DNA from: Pseudomonadota bacterium
Lineage (GTDB): Bacteria; Myxococcota; JACRCW01; JAFGSX01
Reading direction: 5' to 3'
DNA: 64,000 nt
Assembly (NCBI GenBank): GCA_043821645.1
Contig: JBDRCO010000037.1
Coordinates: 160,001 to 224,000, forward strand
The notes beneath the pieces are model-generated. The model had not been told where the DNA came from, ran no database searches, and saw only the letters and a program-made list of their open reading frames with translations. The number at the start of each line of letters is the position of its first letter. Position 1 is the stretch's first letter. A program made the position numbers and the translations under genes. This document shows positions 17,466 through 48,250 of this stretch, one piece after another.

Positions 17466-17497
17466 CACGTGTCAACCCAGAGCGAGCAGGCGGGATC

Positions 17498-22900: not shown

Positions 22901-23260
22901 CTGTACGAGAACCTGGCCGAGACCATGGTCGCCGCCGACTGTCCGAAGGACATCAAGCGCCTGGGCCAGGAGTACTGCGACGAGTACAAGGTCCTGCTCG
23001 AGGACAAGGCCGCCGAGCTGGAGCAGAAGATCGTGCCGGCCTATGAGCTGGCGTACAACGAGGCGATCAAGGCCAAGGTCATCAACGAGTGGACCAAGCG
23101 CACCCTCGAAGGCCTCAACAAGTATCGCAAGGCCCAGTACCCCATCGACAAGGAGCCCCTGGGACGGATGGTTCCTCCCTTGTCGACGGGCGCCGGACTG
23201 GTCATCCCCGACGAGGTTGCTGCTCGCATGGGCGCCGGGCGACAGATGGAGGGCAAGTGA
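19901..23260 (+). CDS. GltD/AgmU-like periplasmic TPR protein (cluster 1)
   Basis: Signal peptide; many TPRs (AMFRLAELYYE, EAWMRIGEFYF, LYKLAWTHY); C-terminal W-x-LASLYRMG and NEW motifs shared with 50223-53669. Confidence 0.8.
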   Translation: MTRSSRVQRWSILLLCMASLAPTRPAGAQVGSVVQPGDAQLLDEIREVVDAFEKQTRAYRRQVNGLVQRQYEERRAQLSETYEKAIRELEVVERQRRLEAIARFEAFLRHYPDNPQYTPDAMFRLAELYYERSYEQYLQAMREFDQQVKAFDRGETTDDPVMPSQHFEDSIALYQQLINRFPSYRLVDAAYYLLGYCLGEQGELESSIQTFVTLTEKYPDSGFYVEAWMRIGEFYFDADRLDEAVQAYTQVTTKGVGTKFYDKGLYKLAWTHYRLDLFDAAIREFLTLVDYADAEKLKGNNEAQSLRPESIQYVAISFADERWDRGIAYDFEADQTGEQMVDFAISYFASAGHRPYEPEIIERLGGILFDSAKYQGAVKALEYALDQAPLAPQAPRLQQKIVEAWERARQFDKATAARDKLFEKYAEKTPWYDANIENGEAIRAAQELTKNSVYVSAIFHHQQAQQYFQEQRLDLAKVSYEQAAKGYQRYLDRFPHDKQAYELRFYLADCYFYSLDFMNAADAYRYVRDSTAGDKYRNDAALGVIFAYQEEIKRLEKAGKLEARKVLTGGREGDTLPAAEEIPTLRTSYIQACDRFVELAPQHERVPVFSYTSAETFYVYNHFDEATKRFEQIIEKYPTDEVAKFAANLIIELLLAKKDWVAVEKFAQMVQQRRVGDTEAYKKFEVGALFNKASQYNAEGEKLLSEGKAKEGNAKLEAAAAEYVRLVSENPKHEFADKALFNAAVAYERVRRFESAARLYERVFDEYPQSDLADKSLFLVALKSEQAFDFDKAIDKYLRLVKDYPKSTDRANALFNAALALENTQQYERAAREYERYASMFSDREDAPETFYRAAIVHEKREDKAAMVSTLFKFIQKYRKDARQGDRVVEALGKIATYYDEAGKDSDATKYYESAVKEFAARGLAPATRAGYFAAKARFALIEKELKRYETIKIEGDGKNQQKQLALKAERLKKVEDQYRTVLDYKQIEWSLASLYRMGFLYENLAETMVAADCPKDIKRLGQEYCDEYKVLLEDKAAELEQKIVPAYELAYNEAIKAKVINEWTKRTLEGLNKYRKAQYPIDKEPLGRMVPPLSTGAGLVIPDEVAARMGAGRQMEGK

Positions 23261-24903: not shown

Positions 24904-24946
24904 CCGGGGACCCGCGAACGGTCGCATCCTCGTCGACAGAGGTGGT

Positions 24947-25219
24947 ATGAAAATGCAGTTGCGCCGGCAAAGGAGCCGCCAGTATACTCGCTGCCTCGTC
25001 GGGGTCGGAGTCGCACTGACCCTGCTTCTGACGACGACAGCGGCGAGTGCGCAGCGGCGCAAGAAGATCGTGCTCAGCGAATTCGTGATCGAAGGGAGAG
25101 TGCAGAAGCCACAGGCCTTTCTTCTGCTGCAGAGGCAGAACCTGAACTTCGAGGGACTTCAACTCAAGAAGAGCTTCGTACCCAAGATTGTCAAGTCCGC
25201 CGACAGGAAGCCATTTTAA
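24947..25219 (+). CDS. GltF/CglF-like small exported protein (cluster 1)
   Basis: Signal peptide (ASA-Q) and IEGRVQKPQAF...SFVPKI, resembling IEGDLKTP...NF of 55185-55439; follows the gltE-like gene. Confidence 0.72.
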   Translation: MKMQLRRQRSRQYTRCLVGVGVALTLLLTTTAASAQRRKKIVLSEFVIEGRVQKPQAFLLLQRQNLNFEGLQLKKSFVPKIVKSADRKPF

Positions 25220-25373
25220 GGGTACTTGCCCGGGCCTTCGCGGCGACACAGAGGTTGTGCTAGGGTAAGCCCGCCGTGACAGAGAGAGTCCGGCGGTTCG
25301 TTCTGGGAGCAAGAGCCTCGCCCCTGAGGCTTGCATCATCGCGCCGGGAAAAGGCACAAGGAGGACGGTCACC

Positions 25374-26030
25374 ATGTTTGCAGCCATCGCCAAGTTCTTC
25401 GAGGACGGCGGACCGTGGATGTATCCCATCGCCGCGGTCTCAGTCGTCTGCGTCGCCGTCGCTATCGAGCGAATCGTATTCTTGTTCTTCCGCTACGATA
25501 TCAATGGCAACGCCTTCATGGCACAGGTCCAGAAGCTGGTGATGGCCAACAACATCGATCGCGCCATCAAGCTGTGCAACGCCGCCCCCAACGCGGCGCT
25601 GCCAAAGATCATCAAGGCTGGCCTCACCCGCGCCAACAAGGGTGAGATGGAGATCCAGAACGCGGTGGAGGAGAGCACGCTCGAGGTGGTGCCCATGCTG
25701 CAGAAGCGCACCAACTCCTTGGCGGCCCTCGCCAACCTGGCCACTCTGCTCGGTCTGCTCGGAACCGTCATCGGTCTGATCCAGGCCTTCAGCGCGGTTG
25801 CCAACGCGCCGCCGGACCAGAAGTCGGCCCTGCTGGCCTCCGCCATCTCGATCGCCATGAACACCACGGCCTTCGGTCTCATGGTGGCGATCCCGACCCT
25901 GTTTGTGCACCTGATCCTGTCGGGTGTGACCAAGAAGATCATCGACGAGATCGATATGTACTCGGTCAAACTCGAGAATCTGCTGATCGCGCGTGGCAAG
26001 GGCGGCTCGGCGGCCATGGACCGCGGCTAG
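25374..26030 (+). CDS. MotA/TolQ/ExbB proton-channel subunit (AglR-like)
   Basis: GGPWMYPI, ATLLGLLGTVIGLIQAF and ISIAMNTTAFGL; AGGAGG RBS. Confidence 0.93.
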   Translation: MFAAIAKFFEDGGPWMYPIAAVSVVCVAVAIERIVFLFFRYDINGNAFMAQVQKLVMANNIDRAIKLCNAAPNAALPKIIKAGLTRANKGEMEIQNAVEESTLEVVPMLQKRTNSLAALANLATLLGLLGTVIGLIQAFSAVANAPPDQKSALLASAISIAMNTTAFGLMVAIPTLFVHLILSGVTKKIIDEIDMYSVKLENLLIARGKGGSAAMDRG

Positions 26031-26137
26031 TCTCTTTCTGCCTTTTTTTGCGCGGACCCGGGCGACTCGCAAGCCCCGGAACTTCTGGCACCCCACGGTG
26101 TCAGATCTGCTGGGATTCGGTCGCGGGAGAGTGAGAG

Positions 26138-26665
26138 ATGGCCAGAAAACCATCCGAGCGGCGCCACGGTGCCGATGAGACGTCAGAGCTGAACCTGGTT
26201 CCGATCATGAACCTGGTGCTGATGCTCATCCCGTCCATCTTGATCACGGCGGCTTTCGTCGAGATCACGGTGATCAACGTTTCGGCGCCGCAGATCGGCG
26301 GTGGCGCTCCCCAGGAGCAGCAGGAAAAGCCTGACAAACCACCGCTCAATTTGACCATCGTATTGACCGACCAGGGGTTCACCATTGCGGGTTCGGGTGG
26401 TGTGCTGGGCCAGGAGCAGGCTGATCCCAATGCCCAGAAGGGGCCCACCATCCCGAAGACCTCGGCGGGTGACTACGACTGGCCAGGTCTGACCAAGAAG
26501 CTGGTCGAGATCAAGGATGCTTTTCCGGAAGAGACCAAGGTCATCGTCAACGCGGAGCCGGACATCAAGTACGAGTTCCTCGTGGGGACCATGGACGCGG
26601 CGCGCGAGACCACTGATCACCGCGAGCTGTTTCCCGACGTGATCCTGAGCGCAGGTATCACCTGA
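26138..26665 (+). CDS. ExbD/TolR subunit at the AglQ position, with Asn replacing the TM Asp
   Basis: ELNLVPIMNL TM start and AEPDIKYEFLVGTMDAAR periplasmic motif. Confidence 0.88.
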   Translation: MARKPSERRHGADETSELNLVPIMNLVLMLIPSILITAAFVEITVINVSAPQIGGGAPQEQQEKPDKPPLNLTIVLTDQGFTIAGSGGVLGQEQADPNAQKGPTIPKTSAGDYDWPGLTKKLVEIKDAFPEETKVIVNAEPDIKYEFLVGTMDAARETTDHRELFPDVILSAGIT

Positions 26666-26718
26666 TAGCAGTGAGGGTGAGGTGCCCGGAGCCGTGAACC
26701 ATCGCTGCGGAGCGTGAG

Positions 26719-27330
26719 ATGAGCGACGCCAGTCAGGAAAAAGATTTCAAGGTCCAGGAGGACGGCATCGGTGACGGTGGCGAGTTCGTCGGCTGGACCG
26801 ATGACCTCAAGGCTGCCCCCACCCAGCGCCGCAAGGGAAAGTCGAAGAGGGTCTCGGAGTACAAGGCCGCCCTCAACATGAACTCCCTCATGGACATCGT
26901 GACCATCATCCTGGTCTACCTGCTCAAGAGCTTTGCAGGCAGCCCGGTGTCGGTGCCCGATCCCAACGTCAAGCTGCCGGCCTCGACCGCCCAGCTGATC
27001 CCGGAAGAGGCGGCGACGATCACCGTGACGACGCAGCGAATCGTCGTCAATGACAAGTCCGTGGCGGAGATCAACGAGGGGCGTATCGACCCCAATGACA
27101 AGCGCGATGGCCCGCAGGGCTTCTTCATCACACCGCTGTACGACGCCCTGGTCGAGGCGGCGGACAACGAGAAGAAGATCGCCCAGTACAACCCGGCGCG
27201 GACCTTCAAGGGGATCAGCATTGTCATCTGCGACAAGAGCATCCCCTTCCGCCTGCTGTCCGAAGTCATGTACACGGCCGGCCAGGCCGAGTTCGGAAAC
27301 TTCAAGTTCGCCGTCATCAAGAAGGAATAG
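26719..27330 (+). CDS. ExbD/TolR subunit (AglS-like)
   Basis: LNMNSLMDIVTIILVYLLKSF and DKSIPFRLLSEVMYTAGQAEF. Confidence 0.9.
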   Translation: MSDASQEKDFKVQEDGIGDGGEFVGWTDDLKAAPTQRRKGKSKRVSEYKAALNMNSLMDIVTIILVYLLKSFAGSPVSVPDPNVKLPASTAQLIPEEAATITVTTQRIVVNDKSVAEINEGRIDPNDKRDGPQGFFITPLYDALVEAADNEKKIAQYNPARTFKGISIVICDKSIPFRLLSEVMYTAGQAEFGNFKFAVIKKE

Positions 27331-27415
27331 GCGGGTCTCGGGGGTCAGGGAGAGGTGTCGGTGCGCGTCGCCTCAGGACAGACGCGTGTATTGAAAGGGT
27401 GAGGAAGCAAAGGTC

Positions 27416-28786
27416 ATGGCCGCGCAAGCCACGGGCAAGATACTCCGCATCGGAGTGATCCAGAGCGGCAAGATCATCGAGGAGCGGCTCCTGCGCAAGC
27501 GGGACGTCGTCACCATCGGTACCGATACCAAGAACACCTTCGTGTTTCCCGCCTCGGAACTGCCCAAGGCCATCCGGCTCTTCGACTTCAAGGGTGGCGC
27601 CTACACACTGTGCTTCGACGACAAGATGGACGGACGTGTGTCCGTCGGTGAGTCTGTCCTCGACTTCACGGGACTCAAGACCCAGGGTGTGGCCAAGAAA
27701 TCTGGCGACCAGTACAGGGTGAGTCTCAATGAAGAGTCCCGCGGCAAGGTGGTCGTGGGCGGGTTCACGCTGCTGTTCCAGTTCGTGGTTCCGCCCCCTG
27801 AGCCTGCCAAGCCGCAGCTCCCGAGCGTGGCCAAGGGCGGCTGGGTCAAGTCCATCGACTGGTTCTTCACGGCGCTGATCGCCTGCTCGTTCGTGGCCCA
27901 CACGGGCTTCCTGGTCTCGTTCAAGTTCACAGATCTGCCTCCCAACCCGACGGTGTTCGAGCTGCCAGATCGCTTCGCCAAGTTCGTGGTGCCGGACAAG
28001 AAGAAGCGCGATCTCGAAGACGCGAAGAAGGCCGGCGAGGGCAAGACTGACGACGAGAAAAAGAAGAAAGCCAAGAAGAAGGCGGACGACGACGAGGGAG
28101 ACAAGAAGGCAGGCAAGAAGAAGGAGATGAGCGAGTCCGAGAAGGCCGCGGCGGCGGCTGCGCGCAAGGCGGCCATTCAGCAAAAGGTCGCAGGCAAGGG
28201 CTTGCTCAAGATCCTTGGCGCGCGGGGACCCGGGGCGGATGGTAGTGGCGCCATCTCCGACGTGTTCAGCGATGGCGGTTTGAGCGGCGATCTCGACGGT
28301 GCTTTTGATGGCACGTCCGGTGTCGGCATCGCCAACAGTGCCGATGAGACCACGCGCCGTGGCAGCGGTAGCGGTGAAGCCACCGGGATCGGCGACCTCG
28401 CCACCGAGGGCGTCGGTACTGCCAACACGGGTTCCAAGGGTGCCGTCAGCGTGCGGGGTAACATCCAGGCGTCCGCGGTCGAGTCCGTGGATGGCAGCCT
28501 GGACCCCAAGAAGATCGCCGCGGCGATTCGCTCACGTCTGTCGGGTATCAAGAATTGTTACGAGCAGCAGCTCAAGCGCAATCCGAAGCTGGCGGGCAAG
28601 ATCGTCGTTGCCTTTGTCATCGACGAAACCGGCAAGGTCAGCGAGGCGAGCGTGGACTCGGACACGCTGGGTGACGGCCAGGTGGCGAAGTGCATCATCG
28701 GGCTCATCCGGCGCGTCAGGTTCCCCAAGCCCGATGAGGGCACGGTCGAGGCCACCTTCCCCTTCGTTTTCACTCCAGCGGGCTGA
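27416..28786 (+). CDS. GltG-like TonB-type transducer (AgmX/PglI C-terminal domain), lacking a canonical FHA
   Basis: TM helix with an S-x3-H motif (SFVAH), K/E- then G-rich linker, and IKNCYEQQLKRNPKLAGKI...FPKP...FPFVF. Confidence 0.85.
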   Translation: MAAQATGKILRIGVIQSGKIIEERLLRKRDVVTIGTDTKNTFVFPASELPKAIRLFDFKGGAYTLCFDDKMDGRVSVGESVLDFTGLKTQGVAKKSGDQYRVSLNEESRGKVVVGGFTLLFQFVVPPPEPAKPQLPSVAKGGWVKSIDWFFTALIACSFVAHTGFLVSFKFTDLPPNPTVFELPDRFAKFVVPDKKKRDLEDAKKAGEGKTDDEKKKKAKKKADDDEGDKKAGKKKEMSESEKAAAAAARKAAIQQKVAGKGLLKILGARGPGADGSGAISDVFSDGGLSGDLDGAFDGTSGVGIANSADETTRRGSGSGEATGIGDLATEGVGTANTGSKGAVSVRGNIQASAVESVDGSLDPKKIAAAIRSRLSGIKNCYEQQLKRNPKLAGKIVVAFVIDETGKVSEASVDSDTLGDGQVAKCIIGLIRRVRFPKPDEGTVEATFPFVFTPAG

Positions 28787-28882
28787 TGACCGTACAATGG
28801 AACGCGCCAGGGCCAGCAGCGCCGGCGCGAGGCGGCGGCGGGCCCCTGCAGGCTCGACAATGGCGAGAGCGGGGAGGCGCAA

Positions 28883-29818
28883 GTGAAGGCCAAGTGGCTA
28901 CACGAGGTTCAGGATCTCCTCAACCAGGAGCAGTTCCGTGCCTGGTTCGATGACCTGGAGCAGGTCCGCATCGAACTCAAGGAGGCCGTGGAGCGCTACG
29001 AGGAGTTGCTGACCCAGGTCAATGTCAGCGAGTTCCGGAGCGAGCTGGCCCAGAAGAACGCCATCGATACCCTCTATCGTGCCAGCGAGTACGAGGACGC
29101 CGCGGCGCAGATGAACGCCGAGGCGACGGACCTCGAAAACAAAGCCATGGAGAACCTGGGCACCTTCGAGGAGCAGCGTGTGCATACCTCGGAGATCTGG
29201 TTCAAGCTGGAAGCTCTGGACCATGACTTGGAGGAGCATCGCAAGGCCAGCAACGCCGCTCGCGTCAAGGAGCTGGAGCGCGGCCGGCGCAAGATATCCG
29301 AGGAGTACGAGCGGGAAGCCGCCAAGAAGCAGCGCTTGTGGGAAGAGGTCGAGGCCATGTGGGGGATCAGCCTCGAGAAGAACCTGCTCACGAACGAGCG
29401 CAGTACCAAGGGCAAAGCCGTGCGGCGGCAAGCGGAGAAGCTTTTTGCCAAGGCCGAGGAGGCCAAGACCCAGGCCGAGGAGCTGCGGGCGGATGCCGAG
29501 GCCATCGCCCGGGAGCGCGAGCGGCTGGAAGAGCGCGAGCGGGAGCTAGTTGAGGACGCCAGGAGCCGGTTTGACGCGGTGCTGCACGAGGACTTCCTGT
29601 ACTGGCAGCAGCGCGAGAACAACAAGCGGGTCTGGGTGTCGCCCCTGATCTCGGACGTCAATAATTACAACATTTCCCTCAGGGCCTGTTCGGTGTATCA
29701 GTGTGAGCGGGGACGCGGCGTCGATTTCCTGGAACCCTTGATCGAGCAGGAAAAATCGTTGCAGGAGGATGGACGTCTCGACGAGTTCTTCAGTGGCGGT
29801 GCGACCAGCGTGCGTTGA
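28883..29818 (+). CDS. Cytoplasmic coiled-coil protein of unknown function
   Basis: E/K/R-rich heptads over most of the length and a small C-terminal beta domain; GGAGG RBS before GTG. Confidence 0.75.
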   Translation: MKAKWLHEVQDLLNQEQFRAWFDDLEQVRIELKEAVERYEELLTQVNVSEFRSELAQKNAIDTLYRASEYEDAAAQMNAEATDLENKAMENLGTFEEQRVHTSEIWFKLEALDHDLEEHRKASNAARVKELERGRRKISEEYEREAAKKQRLWEEVEAMWGISLEKNLLTNERSTKGKAVRRQAEKLFAKAEEAKTQAEELRADAEAIARERERLEERERELVEDARSRFDAVLHEDFLYWQQRENNKRVWVSPLISDVNNYNISLRACSVYQCERGRGVDFLEPLIEQEKSLQEDGRLDEFFSGGATSVR

Positions 29819-30366: not shown

Positions 30367-30438
30367 CGGCGAGTTGACGCGAGTGCGTGGAGCGTGTCGC
30401 ACGCAGGGTCTCCCTGCACTGGACCACGGGGGTTCAAG

Positions 30439-33400
30439 ATGAAGACTTTCCTGGCTCCACTGAAATTTTCGGCTGTGCGAAACCTGCGGACGAGATCCTG
30501 GCATGGGGCCCTGTTGATCCTGCTCATGGCGCCAGGCGCCCAGGCGGTCGAACTCAGGGGCTTTCCCGTGGCCATGGGCGGCCGGGTGAGTGGGTCGTCG
30601 CCTGCCGTGATCGATGTGGATGGCGACGGCCAGCTGGACATCGCCCTGTGCACGTCGACGCGGCTGGTCGTGCTGGACAACAGCGGGGCGCCACTTGCAG
30701 GTTTTCCCTTCGCCCTCAGTCGATCGGCCGACGACAGCGAGATCCAGAACCCGGCATCTCCCACGGCCTGCGACGTCGATGGGGACGGTCGGCCCGAGCT
30801 GGTGGTCGCGGGTCCGGATCGCAAGCTTCACCTCGTGGACGGGGCCGGCAGCGAGCGCCCGGGATGGCCCATCGAACTCAGCGCCCGCGCTCCGGCGGCC
30901 GCGGCCTGCGTGGATCTCGATGGCGACGGCAAACCCGAGATCCTCGTGGTGTCCGAGGACGGCATTCTGCATGCGCGCAGTGCGAGTGGCGCGGCGGCAG
31001 CGGGTTTCCATCCACCCCAGACCAAGTTCTCGCCGGGGCTTATCTCGGTGGTGGACCTGGTCGCCGATCGCAAGGGCCCCGAGCTGGTTCTCGGGACGTC
31101 GGATGGTCGGCTGCATGCCCTTGAGCGCAGCGGACGATCCATCGAGGGATTTCCGGTGGTGACGGACTACGCGGTGAGTGCCGGTGCCTCCGCTGGCGAC
31201 CTGGACGGTGATGGCAGCTGGGATTTGGTGTTTGGCTCGCAGGACTTCGGTCTCTATGCCGTCGACGCGCGAGGCAAGCCGCTCCCTGGTTTCCCGGTCA
31301 AGACCGGCTACCGCATCTATGGCGGGACGGCGCTCGGCGACCTGGACGGAGACGGCCGCGCGGACATCGTGGTCGGGGGAGGGGATGGCAAGATCTACGC
31401 CTTCAATGGCCGGGGTGCGCCCCTTCCGGGATGGCCTGTGGCGACCCGAGCAAGGATACACTCCACGCCCGCCCTGGCCGACGTGGATCGCGACGGTGCT
31501 CTGGAGGTCCTGGTGACCTCGAACGATGGCCGGCTGCATGCCCTGAACCAGCGCGGCCGGCCAGTGCCAGGCTTTCCGGTGATGGTCGGAGGGGAGCTGA
31601 CCACCTCGCCACTGGCCGTGGACCTGGATGGTGATGGCAGCATCGAGGTCCTGGTGGCGTCGGCAAGTGGCCAGCTGCACGCCTACTCCTTCGTGCCCTC
31701 GGGAGCGGCCAAGGCGACCTCGGTGGCCTGGGCTGGCTATGGCAACGGGCCAGCCCGACATGGGCGGACCTTCCCCAATCGAGGTCTGTTCGTGGAACTC
31801 GCGCTGGCGCCGGAGCAAGCGCGTACGGCCGACGCCCTCGAGGTGCACTATCGCTTCGTGGATCTCGACGGTGACGCCGAGAAGGGCACACGGATCCGCT
31901 GGTATCGAGAGGGCAAGCGGGTGCCAGATCTCGATGACAGCCGCAAGGTCCCGGCCGACGCCACGCGCAAGGGACAGCGCTGGAGCTACACGCTGCAGGC
32001 CGCCGAGGACTTCGCGGTCTATGCCGAGGGCAAGGGTGCTCATCTGGCCCGATCACCCGAGCTCCGCGTGGCCAATACTCCACCCTCCGTCCCGACCGTG
32101 AGCCACGAACCCGCCCAACCAGGCACGCGAGACGACATCAAGCTCGTCGTGACCACCCCGGCCCAGGATGCGGATGGCGACAAGGTCCGCTACCGCGTGC
32201 GCTGGTTGCGTAACCGCGAGCTGGTCAAGGAACTCAACGACGCGTTCACGCTCCCGGCTACCCAGACCAAGAAAGGCCAGAGCTGGGAGGCCGTGGTGAT
32301 CGCCCACGACGGTGCCGACGAGGGAACGCCAGCCCGGCACCAGGTCCAGATCGCCAACAGTCCTCCCTCGGCACCGGGCATCGTGCTCGCGCCCGCCACG
32401 GCCCGGGCCGACGATCGCGTCACCGCGCGTGTCGCCAAGGCGTCGATCGATGCGGATGGCGACCCCATTCGTTACCGCTACCGCTGGAGCGTCGACGGGA
32501 AGCGCCGTCCAGTGGACGAATCGGTTGATACCGTACCGGCGCGGAGTGCGGGCAAGGGGCATCTGCTGGGGGTCGACGTCCTGGCCTTCGATGGCCAGGT
32601 GGAGGGCCCTGCGACCCATGTCGAGCTCAAGGTTGCCAACACTGCGCCGCCGGCGCCGGCGCTGTCTCTCGTGCCAGCCAAGCCGCGCGCCGGTGACGAT
32701 CTGATCGTCCGCATTGCGCCCCCTCGAGCAGACGCCGACGGTGACACCATCCGCTACGAACTCGCGTGGCGGCGCAACGGTGAAGCCGTGGCAGGCCTGC
32801 GCGAGGCACGGGTGCCCGCAGCCCAGACCCGCAAGGGAGAGCGCTGGAGTGCCGAGGTCACGGCCCAGGACGGCGAGGCAGCCGGTCCGGTGGCCAAGGC
32901 CGAGGTGACCGTCGGCAACACCCCCCCCGCGGCGCCACGGGTTTCCATCTCGCCGGCTCAGCCCCGCGCCGGTGACGCGCTCAAGGCTCAGGTTGTGGAG
33001 CCCTCGACCGACCTCGACGGTGACAGCGCGCGCTACTCCTGGAGCTGGCTGCGGGATGGCACCGAGGTTGCGGGCCTGAATACCGACAGCGTCCCACCGG
33101 GACGGCTCAAGAAGAACGAAGTCTGGCGCGTTCGTTCCACACCCTCGGACGGCACGGACAGCGGCACTCCTGGCCAGGCTGATCTGCGGGTCGAGGACAC
33201 GCCACCCGGCGCCCCGGTCGTCCGGATCGAGCCCGCCAAGCCCGCCACGGCTGACGCTCTGCGCGCCGTCATCGCAACCCCTGCGGTGGACGTGGATGGC
33301 GATGCCATCAGCTACCGCTACACCTGGTTTCTCGACGGCGTGGCGCAGGATCTTCCCGCCGATCGGGCCGAGGTGGAACCCGCCCGCACCCGCAAGGGGC

Positions 33401-35190
33401 AACGCTGGTCCGTTGAGGCCACGGCCGTGGCCGACGGGCAGATCGGGGAGGCCTCTCGTGCCGAGGTCGAGATCGGCGACACCCCACCTGCGACGCCACG
33501 CGTGGTGATCGCGCCGTCGAACCCGCACACTGGTGACGCCCTGCACGCCAGCGTGCCGGAGTTTCCCCAGGACGTGGACGGCGATCCCCTCAGCATGGCG
33601 ATCCGCTGGCTCAAGGACGGCCAGCCCGCAGGGATAGACGGCGCGAGTGTCCCTGCGGAGCGCACCCGTCGGGGCGAGCGCTGGACTGCCGAGGCCACCG
33701 CGAACGACGGCATGCGTCGCTCGGCTCCAGGTAAAGCCGAGGTCCGCATCGCCAACACGCCACCACGGCCACCGATTCTCAAGATGACCAAGCGCGCCTG
33801 GAAGACCGATGAGACCGTGATCGTGCAGGTGGTCACGCCTGCCCGCGACGACGACGGGGACCCGGTCACCCTGCGCTACGTGTGGGAGCGCGATGGCAAG
33901 GCCGTGGAGCTTCCGGCCACCACCACACAGTTGACGCCCGAGAGAACTGCCAAGGGCCAGGCCTGGGTGGTGCGCGCCATCCCCCGGGACGACAGCGAGG
34001 ATGGCCCCGAGGTCCGTGTCGCCTTCACCGTCCTCAACACCCCTCCCGGACCACCAACCATCACGCTGTCGCCCGCGAAACCGTCGACCCGGGAGCCCTT
34101 GCTGGTCAAGATCGATGCCCCGGCACCGGACACCGATCGCGACGCCCAGAAGTACCGCTATCGCTGGTACAAGGACGGCGTGCGGCAGCGGCTGGACGAG
34201 ACCAGTGGACGCGTGGACGCCAAGCTCACGCACCGCGATGAGCACTGGAGGGTCGAGGTTCGGGCCCACGATGGCGAGGTCGAGGGTCCCGCTGCGAGCG
34301 CCGAGCTTCGCATTCACAACACGGCTCCCGAAGCGCCGGAGCTGCGCATCGAACCGGACACGCCCGGCGGTGGCCAGGACCTGCGTTGCGTCGTCACCCG
34401 AGAGGCACAAGAGGCCGACGGCGACCCGCTGGTGTACCGCTTTTTGTGGGAACGAGACGGCGCTGCTGTGCCCGAGGGAGTCGACGGCGTGGTCCCGGGC
34501 GCCCTCGTCCGCAAGGGGCAGCGCTGGCGATGTTCGGCCGAAGCCAGCGACGGGAGTCTCACCGGGCCCCGGGTCCAGTCCAGCGAAGTGCGCGTGACCA
34601 ATAGCCCGCCGGCACCGCCACGCATCCAGGTCCTCCCGGAGCAAGCCACGGCGGACCACCCCATCACCTGCGCGGTGCTGGACGAGGCCCTCGACCCCGA
34701 CATGGACCCCGTTCGCTACCGCTTCGCCTGGCTCAAGGGAAAGGCCAAGAAGAGGCTGTTCGAGGACCAGTCCGTGCTCCCCCCGGGGACCGCTCGCAAG
34801 GGCGAGCAGTGGACGTGCCTGGTTCGGGCGAGGGATGCCGAGGCCGACAGCCAGGAGGTCCAGGTGTCGGTGAGCGTGATCAACTCGCCGCCCGCGAGCC
34901 CACGCATTCACCTGGAGCCGGAATACCCGGTGGCCGGGGTCGACGGGTTGCGCTGCATCATCGACGATCAAGCCATGGATCCGGATGGCGACAAGGTGCG
35001 GTACCGCGTGCAGTGGTTCAAGGATGGCGTGCTGCAGGGCTTCGCCGCCACCAGCCTCGATGTCCCCTCACGCCTTGTCGTCGACAAGAGCCTGTGGCAG
35101 TGCGCTGTCGAGGCCTCTGACGGCAAGCTGAACGCCGAGCTGGTTCGCAGCAACACCGTGGTGGTGGGCCGACGCCAGGGAGATCGCTGA
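30439..35190 (+). CDS. Large exported FG-GAP/VCBS propeller protein with 12 tandem ~95-aa beta-sandwich repeats
   Basis: Signal peptide (AQA-V), 8 DxDGDG-type blades, then N(T/S)PP...DxDGD..Y.Y.W...KG..W repeats. Start is uncertain. Confidence 0.85.
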   Translation: MKTFLAPLKFSAVRNLRTRSWHGALLILLMAPGAQAVELRGFPVAMGGRVSGSSPAVIDVDGDGQLDIALCTSTRLVVLDNSGAPLAGFPFALSRSADDSEIQNPASPTACDVDGDGRPELVVAGPDRKLHLVDGAGSERPGWPIELSARAPAAAACVDLDGDGKPEILVVSEDGILHARSASGAAAAGFHPPQTKFSPGLISVVDLVADRKGPELVLGTSDGRLHALERSGRSIEGFPVVTDYAVSAGASAGDLDGDGSWDLVFGSQDFGLYAVDARGKPLPGFPVKTGYRIYGGTALGDLDGDGRADIVVGGGDGKIYAFNGRGAPLPGWPVATRARIHSTPALADVDRDGALEVLVTSNDGRLHALNQRGRPVPGFPVMVGGELTTSPLAVDLDGDGSIEVLVASASGQLHAYSFVPSGAAKATSVAWAGYGNGPARHGRTFPNRGLFVELALAPEQARTADALEVHYRFVDLDGDAEKGTRIRWYREGKRVPDLDDSRKVPADATRKGQRWSYTLQAAEDFAVYAEGKGAHLARSPELRVANTPPSVPTVSHEPAQPGTRDDIKLVVTTPAQDADGDKVRYRVRWLRNRELVKELNDAFTLPATQTKKGQSWEAVVIAHDGADEGTPARHQVQIANSPPSAPGIVLAPATARADDRVTARVAKASIDADGDPIRYRYRWSVDGKRRPVDESVDTVPARSAGKGHLLGVDVLAFDGQVEGPATHVELKVANTAPPAPALSLVPAKPRAGDDLIVRIAPPRADADGDTIRYELAWRRNGEAVAGLREARVPAAQTRKGERWSAEVTAQDGEAAGPVAKAEVTVGNTPPAAPRVSISPAQPRAGDALKAQVVEPSTDLDGDSARYSWSWLRDGTEVAGLNTDSVPPGRLKKNEVWRVRSTPSDGTDSGTPGQADLRVEDTPPGAPVVRIEPAKPATADALRAVIATPAVDVDGDAISYRYTWFLDGVAQDLPADRAEVEPARTRKGQRWSVEATAVADGQIGEASRAEVEIGDTPPATPRVVIAPSNPHTGDALHASVPEFPQDVDGDPLSMAIRWLKDGQPAGIDGASVPAERTRRGERWTAEATANDGMRRSAPGKAEVRIANTPPRPPILKMTKRAWKTDETVIVQVVTPARDDDGDPVTLRYVWERDGKAVELPATTTQLTPERTAKGQAWVVRAIPRDDSEDGPEVRVAFTVLNTPPGPPTITLSPAKPSTREPLLVKIDAPAPDTDRDAQKYRYRWYKDGVRQRLDETSGRVDAKLTHRDEHWRVEVRAHDGEVEGPAASAELRIHNTAPEAPELRIEPDTPGGGQDLRCVVTREAQEADGDPLVYRFLWERDGAAVPEGVDGVVPGALVRKGQRWRCSAEASDGSLTGPRVQSSEVRVTNSPPAPPRIQVLPEQATADHPITCAVLDEALDPDMDPVRYRFAWLKGKAKKRLFEDQSVLPPGTARKGEQWTCLVRARDAEADSQEVQVSVSVINSPPASPRIHLEPEYPVAGVDGLRCIIDDQAMDPDGDKVRYRVQWFKDGVLQGFAATSLDVPSRLVVDKSLWQCAVEASDGKLNAELVRSNTVVVGRRQGDR
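31775..35165 (+). repeat. 12 diverged coding repeats of about 285 nt
   Basis: Counted by eye from the NTPP, DxDGD and KGxxW motifs; the last three each carry a Cys pair. Confidence 0.8.
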
Positions 35191-35204
35191 AAACGGTTCG
35201 TTCT

Positions 35205-36179
35205 TCAGCGTCCACGCATCTGGCATTCCGGGCAGTCCACCACCCTCAAGCTCTCGGGGTTCCGCGTGCTGTTGTAGGCCTGCAGTGCCTGCTGCAGAGA
35301 CGGAGTGCAACCCTCGCAGCCCCGAGGAGCCATGCGCGGGTCCAGGCCCTCATCGCTGGTGCCCACCGTGACCTCGCCCAGGGGGTGGACCTGGCGCAGG
35401 ACCTCGATCACGCTCCACAGGCTCGGGGGCTGGTAATGGCCCGCACGCCAGGCCTTCTCGATGGCCGTGCCCGGCGCCACGAACACGGGTTGCAGGGCCA
35501 CATGTGCAGGCACGCGAAGCCTGGTCGCCAGCTCGAACACGTAGCGGCTCGAGGCCACGGCGTCCGCGATGGCCTGGTCCTCGTCGAGACCCAGGGGCTT
35601 GATCAGCAGATACACCAGCAGGCGGGCACCGTGCTGCGCCAGGACGGTGGCGGCGCGCTCGAAGTCCTCGCGACCAAAGCCCTTGTTGACCAGGACCTCC
35701 CGGACGTGGTCGTCCGCACTTTCCAGGCCAATACCCACCTCGAGGCGCTGTCCAGGGACCCGGTCACAGGCGGCCTGGATGCGCTCGGCGTGCACGAACT
35801 CGGGCCGGGATTCCACCAGCACGCGCCGCACGGAGCTCGACCCGAGCGCAGCGAGAACATGGTCGCGCACCGTCGCGGGCATCTCGGCCTCGGCGAAAAA
35901 AGAACCCGAGTTGAACAGATCCACCTCGACGAGATCCGTGAAGGCGCCTGGTGTCGAGAACACGCTGTCGAACTGGGTGATCAGATCCTGGGCCGCCACG
36001 GACACGCCACCGGTGGACAGCGGATGGAAGCCGCAGTTGCTGCACCCGCCATCCGGGCGCCGCGCGTAGGTGCAGCCTGCGGCGCGAAAGATGAACATCA
36101 AGCGTGACCCCGCCGTCCCGTCGACGACGGTGCGGCTGCGCTCGACCAGGGCAGGCCGCCGCAGGTCCTCGGTCGTCAT
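35205..36179 (-). CDS. Radical SAM protein resembling the archaeal RaSEA (TIGR01210-like) family
   Basis: Spaced CX9CX2C (GCTYARRPDGGCSNC), FNSGSF, ESRPEFV, IGLES, NKGF, YLLIKP, YQPPSLWS and C-terminal CxxC...CxxC; ATGA overlap with the upstream gene. Confidence 0.8.
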   Translation of the reverse strand: MTTEDLRRPALVERSRTVVDGTAGSRLMFIFRAAGCTYARRPDGGCSNCGFHPLSTGGVSVAAQDLITQFDSVFSTPGAFTDLVEVDLFNSGSFFAEAEMPATVRDHVLAALGSSSVRRVLVESRPEFVHAERIQAACDRVPGQRLEVGIGLESADDHVREVLVNKGFGREDFERAATVLAQHGARLLVYLLIKPLGLDEDQAIADAVASSRYVFELATRLRVPAHVALQPVFVAPGTAIEKAWRAGHYQPPSLWSVIEVLRQVHPLGEVTVGTSDEGLDPRMAPRGCEGCTPSLQQALQAYNSTRNPESLRVVDCPECQMRGR

Positions 36180-37909
36180 CCGCGGTGCACCAGGAAGGGG
36201 CCGATGGCCAGCGCGTCGATGCGCGAGCGAGAGAAGGTGGCGATGGCGTGCTGCGGGGTACACACGATGGGTTCGCTGATGTTGAACGAGGTGTTGAGCA
36301 CCATGCCCACGCCCGACAGGGCGCGCAGCTCCCTGAGCAGTCTCGCGTACAGCGGGTTGACGGCTTCGCGCACCACGTGCACCCGCGAGGTGGCCTGGCC
36401 CGTGCTCCCGTTCTCCTGCACCACCGCAGGGATCAGCTGCATGGCCTTGCGATCCCGCACGGTGAGGGCCATCAACATGTACTCGGTGGCGTCGAGATCG
36501 GGTGGCGCGTGCAGGAACATGCCGACGTCCTCGTGCAGCACCGAGGGCGCGAAGGGACGGTAGGACTCGCGTTCCTTGATCTTGCTGTTGAGGCGTGTCC
36601 GGGTGTCGAAGCGGCTGGGGTCAGCCAGGATGCTTCGGTTGCCCAGCGCCCGCGGCCCGAACTCCAGGCGACCCTGGAACCAGGCCACCAGCTCGCCGTC
36701 GTGGATCAGGTGCGCGGCATCGCGCGCAATATCGTCGGGCCGGTGGACTGCGAGCCCGGCCTGGCGCAGGGCCGCCTCGATCTCGTCGTCAGCGTAGCCA
36801 GGTCCCAGGTAGCTGTGGTCGAGAAGGGGCCGTTGCGCGTTGCCGAGGACGTGGTTCCAGATCAGACAGGCCGCGCCCAGGGCCGTGCCGGCGTCGTTGG
36901 CCGCGGGCTGCACGTGGAGGAAGCGGAACGGCGTCTGCTCGAGGATGCGCGCATTGGCCACGCAGTTGAGCGCCACGCCGCCCGCCAGGCACAGGGCCTC
37001 CGCGCCGGTGCGCTGGTGGAGGATGCGGGCCAGGTGGACGATCACCTCCTCGGTGACGACCTGCAAACCCGCCGCGATGCTCGCCTCCTCGTACCGATCC
37101 ACCACGCTGGTGCGGCGCGGTCCGAACAGCGGGGCCAGGCCGTCGAAGTCCCGCGTCCGGAAGCGCATGATCGTGTTGTCGACCGCGAAGCCGGCCGTCT
37201 CGAGCTGCACCACGCGGCGCATGCGCCGGGCATAGTCCACGTCGCTGCGCTCACCCATGGGGTCCGTGGTGCAGGCGTAGCCCATCATCTTGCCTGGACC
37301 GGAGTAAACGTCGAAGCCCAGGTGCTCGCTCAGCTTTTCCCATACAAACCCCAGCGAATGGGGATACACCAGGGTGTCCAGGGTCTCGATGCGCGCCCCC
37401 TCGCCCAGGCCCAGGAAGGTCGTGGCATGCTCGCCGATGCCGTCGATGGCGAGCACGGCAGCGCGCCCGTGGGGTGACGGAAAGTAGGCGCTGGCCGCGT
37501 GACACAGATGGTGCGGCAGCACGTGCACCTCGGCGTGCACGAAGCGCTCGCGCAGCGACGCCAGGGCGCGCTGGTTGCTTGCGAAAAAGGCATCCTCCCC
37601 CTCGGGTGTCCCGAAATCGCCTGCGGGAATTCCCGCCACATCGAGCCCACGCTGGCTTTCGCGACGGAGCTGTGGATCGAAGGCGTAGCCCACATGGTCG
37701 ACCTGGTCTGCGGTCAGGCCCGCGTGGGCAAGCACCCACGCCAGGGCGGCCTCGGGGAGTTGATCGGCGTTGTCGACCCGCGAGTGCTTGCCGTGCTTGA
37801 CCCGGCTGAAGCGCTCCTCCTCGACCGCCGAGAGGATCTCGCCGTCTCGAAGCAGGCATACGGACGACTCATGGTAGGCGCAGTTGACGCCAAGGATGAC
37901 AGTGCTCAC
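36176..37909 (-). CDS. O-carbamoyltransferase (NodU/CmcH/TobZ family)
   Basis: YHES, EEERFSRVKH, HHLCHAASA, DGIGE, AGGVALNC, EFGPRALGNRS, RPFAP and LNTSFN; GGAGG RBS before GTG 37909. Confidence 0.94.
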   Translation of the reverse strand: MSTVILGVNCAYHESSVCLLRDGEILSAVEEERFSRVKHGKHSRVDNADQLPEAALAWVLAHAGLTADQVDHVGYAFDPQLRRESQRGLDVAGIPAGDFGTPEGEDAFFASNQRALASLRERFVHAEVHVLPHHLCHAASAYFPSPHGRAAVLAIDGIGEHATTFLGLGEGARIETLDTLVYPHSLGFVWEKLSEHLGFDVYSGPGKMMGYACTTDPMGERSDVDYARRMRRVVQLETAGFAVDNTIMRFRTRDFDGLAPLFGPRRTSVVDRYEEASIAAGLQVVTEEVIVHLARILHQRTGAEALCLAGGVALNCVANARILEQTPFRFLHVQPAANDAGTALGAACLIWNHVLGNAQRPLLDHSYLGPGYADDEIEAALRQAGLAVHRPDDIARDAAHLIHDGELVAWFQGRLEFGPRALGNRSILADPSRFDTRTRLNSKIKERESYRPFAPSVLHEDVGMFLHAPPDLDATEYMLMALTVRDRKAMQLIPAVVQENGSTGQATSRVHVVREAVNPLYARLLRELRALSGVGMVLNTSFNISEPIVCTPQHAIATFSRSRIDALAIGPFLVHRG

Positions 37910-38223
37910 GCGGCCTCCTGCCCCGCCATCGTGCGCCGGAGCCCAAGTGCCCGCATCATACACAGCACAAGGCCACGTGGGAGCCGCACGCGGCGACCTG
38001 GCGACGGGCCCGGTGGCTGATTTTTTTCGCTGTTCCGCTTGCTTGCCCGGGATGGCGGTGCTAACAAGCCGCTCTCGTCACGGCGTGAAGCGCCGGGCAT
38101 GGCCCTCGACGTGGGGGCAAGACTGCTGCCAGGGAAACACTGGCTTCACGGCGCCATCTGCCCTCGCGACGCCCGCTGTGGCTTCGATCTGGCCGGTGGA
38201 GCCCAGCACAACGGAGCGCAACC

Positions 38224-38583
38224 GTGCCGCTATCCGTTCTCATCGACGTGACACGCGCCGGTCTGGCGCAGAGCCCGGGTCCCCAGGGCGGCGCCCTCAG
38301 TATGGTACTCATGCTGGGAGTGATGTTCGCGATCATCTACTTCCTGATGATCCGACCCCAGCAGAAGCAGCAGAAGAAGCACCGCGACTTCCTGTCCAAG
38401 CTCAAGAAGGGCGACGAGGTGGTGACCCAGTCCGGGTTCCTTGGCCGCGTCTTTGCCGTCGAGGAGAGCGTGGTGACCCTGGAGCTGGCGGACAAGGTCA
38501 AGGTTCGCGTGCTCAAGCACGCCGTGGCCAACATGGCACCGGGCACCGAGCCCGCAGCCGCCGACGACAGCAGCAAGAAGTGA
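38224..38583 (+). CDS. yajC: Preprotein translocase subunit YajC
   Basis: YFLMIRPQQKQQK...LKKGDEVVT-SG; start is uncertain. Confidence 0.95.
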   Translation: MPLSVLIDVTRAGLAQSPGPQGGALSMVLMLGVMFAIIYFLMIRPQQKQQKKHRDFLSKLKKGDEVVTQSGFLGRVFAVEESVVTLELADKVKVRVLKHAVANMAPGTEPAAADDSSKK

Positions 38584-38626
38584 GCACTGGCCGTCCGGTG
38601 CGCGACGACCCCGCACGAGGTTGATG

Positions 38627-40405
<1,779 letters not shown>

Positions 40406-40415
40406 GGGGCGTGCC

Positions 40416-41735
40416 ATGCAACTCATCAAGCCGGGCACCGACTACAACTTCACTGGCCGCGTCCCGCTGTTTGGCGGGATCTCCATCGGGCTGGTCCTGC
40501 TGTCACTGGTCGGCATCGCCACCCGTGGATTCAACTGGGGCATCGACTTCGCCGGTGGCACCGAGCTGCAGGTGCGCTTCGACAGCGCCGTGGCCACCAC
40601 CGACATCCGTCGCGTGCTGGGGGAGCAGGGCTTCGACAAGAACGAGGTCCAGCCCTACGGCGCAGTCGAGAGCCACGAATTTCTGGTGCGCATCGAGCGC
40701 GTGACCTCGCTGGGCGAGGATCGCGTCGCCCGTCTTCGCGAGGAGGCGCTCAAGCACTTTGGTGCCGAGACCCTGCATGCCTTCGTGTTCGAGCCAAGCG
40801 AAGGTGATCGCGTGGCGCTGGATTTCGCGCTTCCTCCGATCACCGCACCGGCTGTCGAAGATGCCGGGGTGAGCGCGGACGCGGCGGTCCAGGGCGAGCA
40901 GCTGGCCAGGGCCCGCGCCCAGCGTGACGAGAAGTCCGTAGCCGAGCTGACCGTCAAGGTGCAAGACTTCTTCAAGGCCCAGGGCATCGAGCTGCGCGCG
41001 CACGACTTCATCCAGTTTGGCCAGGTCCGCGGTGACAAGGTCGAGGCCCTGATCTACTTCAAGGGCGTGGCCGATCGCATCGTGCAGAGCATGACCAAGG
41101 CCTTCGGCCCGGCCTGCACCGCGGAGAACGCCGCGGACGTGTGCAAGGCGAGCAATCGCTGCGACAGCGGCAAGTGCGCCATCGACAACCGGCGTACCGA
41201 CTACGTCGACAGCAACGTCAGCAAGGAGCTGCGGACCACCGGTCTGCTGGCCATCATCTACGCGCTACTCGGCATCCTGCTCTACATTGCCGTGCGGTTT
41301 GACTTTTACTTCTCCCCCGGGGCGGTGGTGGCGGTGATCCACGACGTCACCATCACCATGGGGATCTTCGCCTGGCTCGGTTTGGAGTTCAACCTGACCA
41401 CCATCGCGGCCCTGTTGACCATTGTAGGTTACTCACTCAACGACACCATCGTGGTCTACGACCGTATTCGTGAGACCCTGCCCACCGACGACAAGCTCAA
41501 GGAGGACAGGGCCAGCTACGTCAACCGCGCCATCAACGACACCCTGAGCCGCACCATCTTGACCTCGGGCACGACCATGCTGGTGGTCGTCGCGCTGCTC
41601 ATCTTTGCCACCGGCGTCATCCAGATGTTCGCCGTCGCCATGGCCATAGGCATCACGGTCGGAACCTACTCCTCGATCTACGTGGCCAGCCCCGTCTATC
41701 TGATCCTCAAGAAGATGGTACCCGCACCGCGCTAG
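40416..41735 (+). CDS. secF: Protein translocase subunit SecF with an enlarged periplasmic domain
   Basis: GIDFAGGT, HDV, GYSLNDTIVVYDRIRE and GTYSSI. Confidence 0.96.
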   Translation: MQLIKPGTDYNFTGRVPLFGGISIGLVLLSLVGIATRGFNWGIDFAGGTELQVRFDSAVATTDIRRVLGEQGFDKNEVQPYGAVESHEFLVRIERVTSLGEDRVARLREEALKHFGAETLHAFVFEPSEGDRVALDFALPPITAPAVEDAGVSADAAVQGEQLARARAQRDEKSVAELTVKVQDFFKAQGIELRAHDFIQFGQVRGDKVEALIYFKGVADRIVQSMTKAFGPACTAENAADVCKASNRCDSGKCAIDNRRTDYVDSNVSKELRTTGLLAIIYALLGILLYIAVRFDFYFSPGAVVAVIHDVTITMGIFAWLGLEFNLTTIAALLTIVGYSLNDTIVVYDRIRETLPTDDKLKEDRASYVNRAINDTLSRTILTSGTTMLVVVALLIFATGVIQMFAVAMAIGITVGTYSSIYVASPVYLILKKMVPAPR

Positions 41736-47097: not shown

Positions 47098-47473
47098 ACC
47101 GGGAGACTCTGTGGTAGGATTTACCCCACTGGCCCATTAGTAATGAGGTGGTTGCGGGTGGCACGGGGCTGCGATAGTTATGGGTGGTTCGCGAGACCCC
47201 GAGGGGAGGCAATCCCGTTCCCGTGGGAGGTCCGGATGCTAAGCCAGTCCACCGTGCCCGCAAAAAGCTGCAGGGGTGCCGGGAGCTTGAGACGGCTGGT
47301 ACGCGGACTCGCCACGGCCACACCGGTGGTGAGATGGGCTCCGCTCCCCGGTCTGCAGAACGATCGACCCCGTGCTACTCGACGACGAGGCTGCACCGGC
47401 CGCCGCGGGGCGGACCGGCCCGGAATGTAAAGACCCCGCGAACGCTATCGCGCATGTTGCGACGGAGAACACC

Positions 47474-48250
47474 GTGACGCTCAAGCCAGCCGCAGTTTTT
47501 GCTCTCGCCTTGCTCCCCGTCTCCGCCCTGGCGCAGGAGGCCACGAAGACCGATTCGGACACCGCGGCCGCCGCCGAGGAGTCGCAGGAGCAGGTCGAGG
47601 CCACGGACAGCGTGGGCAAGCCCCTGAGAGACCGCATCAAGGCGGTCAGTCGCAAGTCGTTCTTGAAGAAGAACCGCTTCGAGGCCACCCCGGCCTTTGG
47701 GCTCAGCGTCAACGATGCGTTCTTCCGTAACTACATCGTCCAGCTCGACGCCACCTACCACATCGTCGAGAGCTTCAGCCTCGAGCTGCGTCTGGGGCTG
47801 CCGGTGTTCGGTGAGCCGCTGGACCCGGTGGAGTTCCTGCGCAGCGAGTACAAGACCCTGACCAACATCGTGCGGCCGGCCTACCTGGTGCAGCTCTCTG
47901 GCAACTTCACGCCGCTGTACGGCAAGGTGGCCATGTTCAGCGAGTGGATCTGGCAGTACGACCTGTACCTGGCTGGCGGCGTCGGCGTCACCGGTATCGG
48001 TATCCTCACCGGTGCGCGCCTGGACATGTCGGCCATCGCCCACATGCCCTCGATGAACGTGGGCGTGGGCATGCGCTCCTTCATCACCCGCTGGATGGTC
48101 GTTCACCTGGACGCGCGCGACTACATCTACCCGTCGGTGACCGACGGCCTGAGCAACATCCAGAACCTGCTCGTCGTGAGCGTCGGCGTGGGCTTCTTCT
48201 TCCCCTTCGACTTCGAGTACGAGTACGAAGGCTACAAGGTGGTGCAGTGA
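47474..48250 (+). CDS. GltA/GltB-type outer-membrane beta-barrel
   Basis: GTG with GGAG RBS, signal peptide, RDRIKAVSRKSFLKKNRFE, PLYGK and terminal GFFFP. Confidence 0.85.
   Translation: MTLKPAAVFALALLPVSALAQEATKTDSDTAAAAEESQEQVEATDSVGKPLRDRIKAVSRKSFLKKNRFEATPAFGLSVNDAFFRNYIVQLDATYHIVESFSLELRLGLPVFGEPLDPVEFLRSEYKTLTNIVRPAYLVQLSGNFTPLYGKVAMFSEWIWQYDLYLAGGVGVTGIGILTGARLDMSAIAHMPSMNVGVGMRSFITRWMVVHLDARDYIYPSVTDGLSNIQNLLVVSVGVGFFFPFDFEYEYEGYKVVQ

Follow-up and report, generated by a model that had tools for sequence, protein, structure and literature searches.

A carbamoyltransferase gene coupled to a RaSEA-like radical SAM gene in bacterial genome bins: a candidate two-step modification pathway

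The gene pair and its two products

The stretch of DNA considered here, referred to as the window, comprises 64,000 nucleotides (positions 160,001 to 224,000 of contig JBDRCO010000037.1, assembly GCA_043821645.1, deposited as a Pseudomonadota bacterium and placed by GTDB in Myxococcota). A pair of intact open reading frames (ORFs) on its minus strand fills positions 35205–37909, and both were found where a sequence-only reading of this DNA had placed them. The upstream gene (36176..37909, minus strand) starts with GTG and encodes a protein of 577 aa, P0002, in which a Kae1-like N-terminal domain is followed by a YrdC-like C-terminal domain, as in carbamoyltransferases of the TobZ/NodU/CmcH family. 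The downstream gene (35205..36179, minus strand) starts with ATG and encodes a protein of 324 aa, P0001, which matches TIGR01210, the model for the radical S-adenosylmethionine (SAM) enzyme RaSEA. The transferase stop codon occupies 36176–36178, and the radical SAM gene runs from its start ATG at 36179 to its stop codon at 35205–35207; the four overlapping bases, ATGA (36176..36179, minus strand), are read as ...cgcggATGAcg.... This overlap suggests translational coupling of the two genes. The two-gene unit with its ATGA overlap had already been pointed out in the sequence-only reading, together with a CX9CX2C motif and a C-terminal cysteine cluster in the radical SAM protein, and all of these are read directly from the DNA and its translation (C36, C46 and C49; C288, C291, C316 and C319). 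The GTG at 37909 is most likely the transferase start, because an AGGAGG ribosome-binding site (37914..37919, minus strand) stands 4 nt before it and the orthologues align from residue 1. The GC content at third codon positions is 0.88 and 0.85 for the two genes, as expected for real genes in high-GC DNA (about 66% GC here). A scan for promoters and terminators gave no promoter-like site and two terminator-like sites within the genes, not above shuffled sequences. Nothing in 34900–38700 exceeded an Rfam threshold; the matches to radC (23.9 bits, cut-off 40) and to a CRISPR repeat (22.2 bits, cut-off 50) are both taken as chance, and hence provide no riboswitch clue.

P0002 is, as far as its sequence tells, a TobZ-type carbamoyltransferase with a complete set of motifs. 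Carbam_trans_N (PF02543) covers residues 5–348 (1.4e-53, 183 bits, cut-off 24) and Carbam_trans_C (PF16861) residues 399–576 (2.7e-54, 183.7 bits, cut-off 27) in Pfam. Among solved structures in the PDB, TobZ is the best match (7.5e-85), followed by NovN and GdmN. Five motifs, HHxxH, DGxGE, NDAG, K-E-R-E-x-x-RPFAPS and NTSFN, align with TobZ chain 3ver_A and are invariant in 32 orthologues; presumably they retain the catalytic roles that they have in TobZ. The first of them, H133-H134-x-x-H137 in the Kae1-like domain (codons at 37499..37513, minus strand), aligns with HHLAH of TobZ, and its three histidines are presumed to be metal ligands. The NodU equivalog NF041651 gives 118.1 bits, below its cut-off of 1000. 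Transferase identity across phyla is 43–75%. The known enzymes of the TobZ family belong to biosynthetic clusters, where they tailor antibiotics or Nod factors; to our knowledge none has a radical SAM partner. P0002 shares with TobZ, NodU, CmcH, NovN and GdmN the two-domain architecture and the aligned conserved motifs; the clade of P0002 differs in being bound to a RaSEA-like gene and in standing outside biosynthetic clusters. Of the 120 best relatives of P0002, which are all 571–643 aa long, none is a fusion of transferase and radical SAM domains.

TIGR01210, an NCBIfam equivalog model, is the sole strong match of P0001 (1e-58, 199.0 bits), at a score slightly below its curated cut-off of 212.15; the archaeal member L058 gives 303.6 bits. 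The radical SAM enzymes of tRNA U34, MnmL/YtqA (TIGR01212, 24.6 bits) and Elp3 (TIGR01211, 20.7 bits), are distant sequence relatives of P0001, which scores far under their cut-offs (180 and 350) and is without a GNAT domain. The search with these hidden Markov models thus leaves P0001 outside the other characterised radical SAM families; membership of one of these would, according to the sequence-only reading, have refuted its proposal. The PDB contains no RaSEA entry, and Elp3 is the best solved relative by sequence (4e-5). The AlphaFold2 model of P0001 has a mean predicted local distance difference test value (pLDDT) of 94.9. The solved folds nearest to this model are those of Elp3 (8pty_C, E 9.4e-10, template modelling (TM) score 0.58) and RlmN, with TM scores of 0.5–0.6, and ESM Atlas models labelled RaSEA align with it at TM scores of 0.89–0.92.

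P0001 and archaeal RaSEA have a common scaffold. C36-x9-C46-x2-C49 (codons at 36033..36074, minus strand), the conserved radical SAM [4Fe-4S] cluster site, is kept without exception in the 28 sequences of alignment A1 and in archaeal RaSEA. The C-terminal cysteines C288-x2-C291...C316-x2-C319 (codons at 35223..35318, minus strand), a putative second metal site, are retained in at least 97% of the transferase-linked clade and in 100% of archaeal sequences. At 28 positions the same residue occurs in at least 90% of both groups, and these positions include all seven cysteines, SGS, GLES, K166, K194, D206, Y249 and W255. On the other hand, Y, K and S, present in 100% of archaeal sequences, are replaced by F51, D87 and A228 in P0001 and in at least 90% of the transferase-linked clade, and an archaeal N (81%) is replaced by F233 in P0001. 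The changed positions (51, 87, 228 and 233) may well be in contact with the substrate. The sequence-only reading had called the protein an archaeal-type RaSEA-like enzyme; the RaSEA-like part stands, and P0001 is more aptly described as a member of a bacterial sister clade with altered signature residues than as archaeal-type. Some members of this bacterial clade (P0032, P0045 and P0112) bear in their source the name 'archaeosine biosynthesis radical SAM protein RaSEA', which is probably over-annotation because their conserved partner is a carbamoyltransferase and the signature residues are changed.

Recurrence and co-inheritance of the pair

A scan of one genome per species yielded 194 relatives of the radical SAM protein, and the best 80 loci were examined by tblastn with P0002 at each. 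In 42 of the 80 the radical SAM gene is immediately preceded, on its own strand, by a carbamoyltransferase gene; one further locus, L048, has two transferase remnants only, and 37 are without the transferase (27 archaeal, five cut and five bacterial). In the five cut loci the radical SAM gene lies less than 190 nt from the contig start, so that they are uninformative. The transferase is absent despite sufficient upstream room from the bacterial loci L033, L053, L054, L062 and L076, and it stands beside the radical SAM gene in none of the 27 archaeal loci. The 42 pair loci are labelled as Myxococcota, Riflebacteria/Ozemobacteraceae, Verrucomicrobiota, Planctomycetota, Xenobia, Pseudomonadota and one Nanoarchaeota (DPANN), although all of them come from metagenome bins, the taxonomic labels of which may be wrong. 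A four-base overlap (ATGA or GTGA) is present at 32 of the 42 measured junctions, including that of the window, or at 33 of 42 when the fused ORF of L037 is included, and at three more junctions the genes are 0–7 nt apart.

The main split of a quick IQ-TREE phylogeny of the radical SAM protein (76 rows; the fragmentary or frameshifted L018, L020, L027, L043 and L053 left out) puts on the window side 47 rows, of which 41 are adjacent to a transferase, three are cut by a contig end and three are without a transferase. On the other side are all 27 archaeal RaSEA rows together with one Paenibacillus and one Ktedonobacteria sequence. In a FastTree phylogeny of 94 rows the window protein again falls outside the archaeal clade, the support of which is 100. 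The major groups of the radical SAM tree reappear in a FastTree phylogeny of 38 transferases: the window and L001 fall within a group of Myxococcota and Riflebacteria, Verrucomicrobiota stand beside L035 and L039, the Kofleriaceae form a pair, and Planctomycetota and Xenobia are outlying. Across 37 loci the identities to P0001 and to P0002 are correlated with r = 0.89. On these comparisons the two genes are inherited as a unit, and this unit has apparently moved between phyla. The pairing is thus not unique to this genome, an outcome that the sequence-only reading would have taken as refutation, but recurs in at least five bacterial phyla, mostly with overlapping genes and with trees that share major clades. 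A chance neighbourhood of the two genes is rejected on account of the conserved overlap and the co-inheritance.

All-against-all clustering of the ORFs from 43 pair loci detected only the two families as common; the next real family occurs in seven of the 43, and families 1, 3 and 4 of this clustering are shadow ORFs opposite the two genes. A Pfam scan of 102 ORFs from 19 loci revealed no common theme among the neighbours. Some loci have peculiarities of their own. Locus L048 (9529–10993) has transferase fragments corresponding to query residues 1–45 and 484–575 before an intact radical SAM gene, and may represent decay of the pair in one bin. The frameshifts in the radical SAM genes of L018, L020 and L053 are either errors or pseudogenes. 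Genes for serine hydroxymethyltransferase (SHMT), a B12-radical SAM protein and a GDSL protein adjoin the pair in L041. In the Nanoarchaeota bin (L037, 3–3484) the transferase gene overlaps by ATGA an ORF in which a methyltransferase and the radical SAM protein are fused; the product, P0122 (693 aa), consists of a HemK/MTQ2-like N-methyltransferase with an NPPF motif and a RaSEA-like radical SAM domain.

In the window itself the pair is flanked on one side by a convergent gene (30394–35190, plus strand) for a 1598-aa FG-GAP/beta-propeller protein, the stop codon of which is 14 nt from that of the radical SAM gene, and on the other side by divergent secD and secF genes (38621–41735, plus strand); neither the FG-GAP/beta-propeller gene nor secD/secF recurs in related loci. 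A gene for pyruvate:ferredoxin oxidoreductase of about 1227 aa (11565–15248, minus strand) hints at an anaerobic or microaerobic lifestyle, in keeping with the oxygen sensitivity of a radical SAM enzyme and with the origin of the related bins from groundwater, digesters and sediments. Regions 15332–29818 and 47333–64000 resemble a gliding-motility region of a myxobacterium, with genes for a Roadblock/LC7 (MglB-like) protein (15332–15943), a small GTPase (16011–16616), several giant tetratricopeptide-repeat proteins, one ExbB and two ExbD proteins (25269–27330) and an FHA/TonB_C protein (55534–57672). A Pfam scan found no TGT, ArcS, PUA or QueC/D/E domain among 43 ORFs of the window, in accordance with the earlier remark that neither arcS nor tgt is present there, and the window contains no tRNA gene.

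Fused relatives and other bacterial members of the family

Searching 1.84 billion representative proteins with a profile gave 2715 relatives at E ≤ 0.001, 886 of them at E ≤ 1e-30. Long proteins are frequent among the best 150 relatives. A word-indexed search for longer forms of P0001 had given a false negative; it was the profile search that detected the fused forms. Twenty-seven long forms were scanned for domains. An N-terminal TIR domain is present in seven (TIR_2 at E ≤ 1e-12 in six proteins), N-terminal EAD7 in one and a C-terminal DDAH/amidinotransferase-type domain in one; an ABC ATPase, a GNAT, an ACT and a DUF6190 domain occur in one protein each. Immediately ahead of the radical SAM domain, 12 of the long forms have in common a domain of about 170 aa, which is marked by the motifs IYxHD, ATHP, RGVxVxRLY and DFV. 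In P0260, P0267, P0269, P0272, P0295, P0296, P0305, P0358, P0265, P0301, P0332 and P0372 it accompanies an N-terminal TIR or EAD7 domain. It matches DUF6879 weakly in four of the 12 proteins, its resemblance to the transferase and to the radical SAM protein by hhalign has a probability below 1%, and Atlas features assign it a score of at most 0.84, which is a lead only.

Nucleotides or nucleic acids are frequent targets of conflict systems. Most TIR/EAD7 forms constitute the sister group of the transferase-linked clade in the 94-row FastTree phylogeny, and the signature R26, F51, D87, A228, F233, G273, S275 and E277 is common to both. The fused proteins differ from P0001 in having L91 for S91 and often G for K194, and they have the domain of about 170 aa with TIR or EAD7 instead of a carbamoyltransferase partner. 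EAD7 is described in PMC7159879 as a domain that recruits effectors of conflict systems. The word 'carbamoyl' occurs nowhere in the eLife paper on conflict systems.

Other bacterial RaSEA-like genes are found in various surroundings. On plasmid pFRL3 of Streptomyces sp. FR1 (NC_023283.1; L082, 8836–18840, and L084, 1–4548) such a gene belongs to an apparent operon in the order radical SAM protein, cytochrome P450, SHMT, GT9 heptosyltransferase-type protein, carbamoyltransferase, GDSL esterase, RfaE2 and oxidoreductase, which looks like a cluster for a heptose-containing metabolite; with 36% identity to P0002, its carbamoyltransferase is no nearer to P0002 than other members of the family are. 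On a plasmid of Bacillus thuringiensis HD1002 (NZ_CP009349.1; L081, 1–18103) the RaSEA-like gene lies within a cluster resembling those for fatty acid synthase or polyketide synthase, with AsnB, a phosphopantetheinyl transferase and ABC transporters, and 5 kb away from it is a gene for a HemK/PrmC-family methyltransferase, which scores 198.9 bits with the PrmC model against a cut-off of 199.1. In Paenibacillus macquariensis (L062, 9366–11518) a gene of the arginine deiminase/amidinotransferase superfamily follows the RaSEA-like gene, and P0334 fuses both domain types. A radical SAM gene of the L062 clade stands behind genes for a non-ribosomal peptide synthetase (NRPS) and a thioesterase in L076, and the RaSEA-like gene of L054 is beside ATP-grasp, HGD-D and major facilitator superfamily (MFS) genes. 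A pattern can be read from these data: the partners, namely amidinotransferase/DDAH-like proteins, HemK-type amide N-methyltransferases, AsnB and carbamoyltransferases, would all handle planar N-C(=X)-N/O groups, and the amidine handled by RaSEA would be of the same kind as these carbamoyl, amidino/guanidino and carboxamide groups.

Proposed function and alternative explanations

ArcS transfers lysine, and in Euryarchaeota ArcS and RaSEA make archaeosine on tRNA G15. The bacterial pair follows the same logic, in that an adduct-forming transferase is associated with a radical SAM partner, although here the transferase is a TobZ-type carbamoyltransferase rather than lysine-transferring ArcS and neither tgt nor arcS was found near the pair. 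For RaSEA, the original work of Yokogawa et al. (2019) is cited here through PMC11298593 and PMC7694415. According to the former, ArcS and RaSEA work as a complex and ArcS alone is inactive. The transferase and the radical SAM protein probably work as a complex also, because ArcS and RaSEA form one and the tight translational coupling suggests one here; a complex prediction for P0001 and P0002 gave a score of 0.00, which counts neither way on binding. No description of a carbamoyltransferase paired with a RaSEA-like enzyme was found in the open-access literature, which agrees with the sequence-only reading, to which no described pathway with this pairing was known.

We hold with high confidence that the two genes encode a unit for modification in two coupled steps. 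The sequence-only reading had proposed a pair that adds a group and then processes it by a radical reaction, on a nucleoside, a glycan or a small molecule; this outline is supported, the mechanism and the kind of target being inferences. The preferred reading, at a confidence slightly below an even balance, is that the genes form a single bacterial unit which corresponds in its logic to archaeal ArcS·RaSEA and works on a widely available substrate for which an RNA nucleoside or nucleotide is the leading guess. By homology to TobZ, the YrdC-like domain would make carbamoyl-AMP from carbamoyl phosphate and ATP, and the Kae1-like domain would pass the carbamoyl moiety to a substrate hydroxyl or amino group. 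By homology to RaSEA, P0001 would then cleave SAM at the CX9CX2C cluster, and the resulting 5'-deoxyadenosyl radical would take a hydrogen from the carbon beside the carbamoylated atom, leading presumably to C-N or C-O scission or to a rearrangement. It is somewhat probable that the carbamoyl step precedes the radical step in this way. The favoured target would be a tRNA or rRNA nucleoside or else a free nucleotide.

No gene for a scaffold, a transporter or a regulator travels with the pair and the pair is apparently transferred between phyla, and the substrate would therefore be present already in most cells. RNA or a nucleotide is guessed because the radical SAM relatives that score with P0001 (RaSEA, MnmL and Elp3) are all tRNA enzymes, because Elp3 and RlmN have the nearest solved folds, because the relatives of the transferase domains make t6A on tRNA, as TsaD/Kae1 and TsaC/YrdC, the standalone counterparts of these domains, are known to do, and because the sister clade with the same signature residues is fused to the conflict-system domains TIR and EAD7. 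The assignment of RNA or a nucleotide as the target is tentative, and taken by itself it is rather to be doubted than relied on. Several points weigh against the preferred reading. No recognisable RNA-binding domain (PUA, THUMP or TRAM) was detected by Pfam in P0001 or P0002, and both proteins are mildly acidic (isoelectric points of 5.7 and 6.0, respectively), although this does not discriminate RNA from small-molecule substrates. Of the TobZ family, the characterised enzymes to which the PDB search led (TobZ, NovN and GdmN) all use small molecules, and other bacterial RaSEA-like genes occur in apparent metabolite gene clusters. The pair is rare and found in bins of uncultured genomes only, which means that it is not a housekeeping system. 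In the quick radical SAM tree the main split has a Shimodaira–Hasegawa-like approximate likelihood-ratio support of 93, short of a decisive value.

Among the alternatives, the one that survives best, though unlikely, is that the pair tailors a specialised metabolite, a lipid or a cell-surface glycan, the transferase O-carbamoylating a sugar or an alcohol, the radical SAM enzyme acting on the same molecule and the scaffold genes being encoded elsewhere in the genome. Among solved structures, antibiotic-tailoring enzymes are indeed nearest to the transferase, RaSEA-like genes are present in the metabolite-type clusters of pFRL3, the B. thuringiensis plasmid, L076 (with its NRPS), L054 and L062, and the neighbours of the pair in L041 (SHMT, B12-radical SAM and GDSL genes) would suit such a role. 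However, no scaffold, glycosyltransferase or exporter family recurs beyond a maximum of seven of the 43 pair loci, and the neighbours are heterogeneous. The same tight two-gene architecture in at least five phyla would be unusual for a system dependent on a lineage-specific scaffold, and the low identity of the pFRL3 transferase to P0002 also sets that cluster apart from the pair.

A role in conflict or defence, in which a nucleotide, a tRNA or another essential molecule would be modified upon infection or competition, as the TIR/EAD7 relatives presumably do, is improbable. It is favoured by the sister clade with N-terminal TIR_2 or EAD7, by the clade signature (F51, D87, A228, F233, G273, S275 and E277) which these forms carry, by the recruitment of effectors through EAD7, and by the sporadic, apparently transferred occurrence of the pair across phyla. 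On the other hand, P0001 and P0002 match none of the 5027 models of PADLOC-DB 2.0 (E ≤ 0.001), and no copy was found in 50,697 phage records. The neighbours do not form defence islands, neither protein of the pair carries a sensor or regulatory domain, and the transferase is strongly conserved across phyla, unlike typical fast-evolving defence genes.

Still less credible is a protein target, in which the transferase would carbamoylate a side-chain amine or amide for the radical enzyme to process. The characterised relatives of the methyltransferase fused to the L037 radical SAM protein act on release factors and ribosomal proteins, whose glutamine amides they methylate; this fusion and the proximity of a HemK/PrmC gene to a RaSEA-like gene in B. 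thuringiensis both point in this direction. The methyltransferase fusion, however, is present in just one of the 42 pair loci, the same methyltransferase fold also methylates RNA bases, and neither a precursor peptide gene nor a protein-recognition domain is conserved near the pair. That P0001 is a true RaSEA, making archaeosine with an ArcS encoded elsewhere beside an unrelated carbamoyltransferase gene, is scarcely credible although TIGR01210 is its best model and some bacterial relatives bear this name. The score below the cut-off, the placement outside the archaeal clade, the replacement of archaea-invariant Y, K and S, the carbamoyltransferase conserved as partner in bacterial but not archaeal loci, and the lack of TGT and ArcS domains among the scanned ORFs of the window all count against it.

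In the preferred reading, that of an RNA or nucleotide modification unit, a wider proposal can be formulated, for which our confidence is low. A bacterial tRNA, rRNA or nucleotide might bear an undescribed carbamoyl-derived modification that is completed by a radical step of the RaSEA type; the same pocket, fused to TIR or EAD7, might have been recruited as an effector in conflict; and RaSEA might be the archaeal tip of a wider family that processes amidine-, urea- and carbamate-type groups on nucleic acids and nucleotides.

The annotation of the family is to be corrected at any rate, in that the members of the bacterial clade named RaSEA pair with a carbamoyltransferase and differ in signature residues. 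The sister clade with TIR or EAD7 provides a second, independent route to the chemistry of the family, and the pair, being a module of two genes, lends itself to a direct test through co-expression. Should the two enzymes produce a new modification of RNA or of a nucleotide, the pair would constitute a new bacterial pathway with new radical SAM chemistry, and the principle of ArcS·RaSEA, to attach a group and then trim it by a radical reaction, would reach beyond archaeosine.

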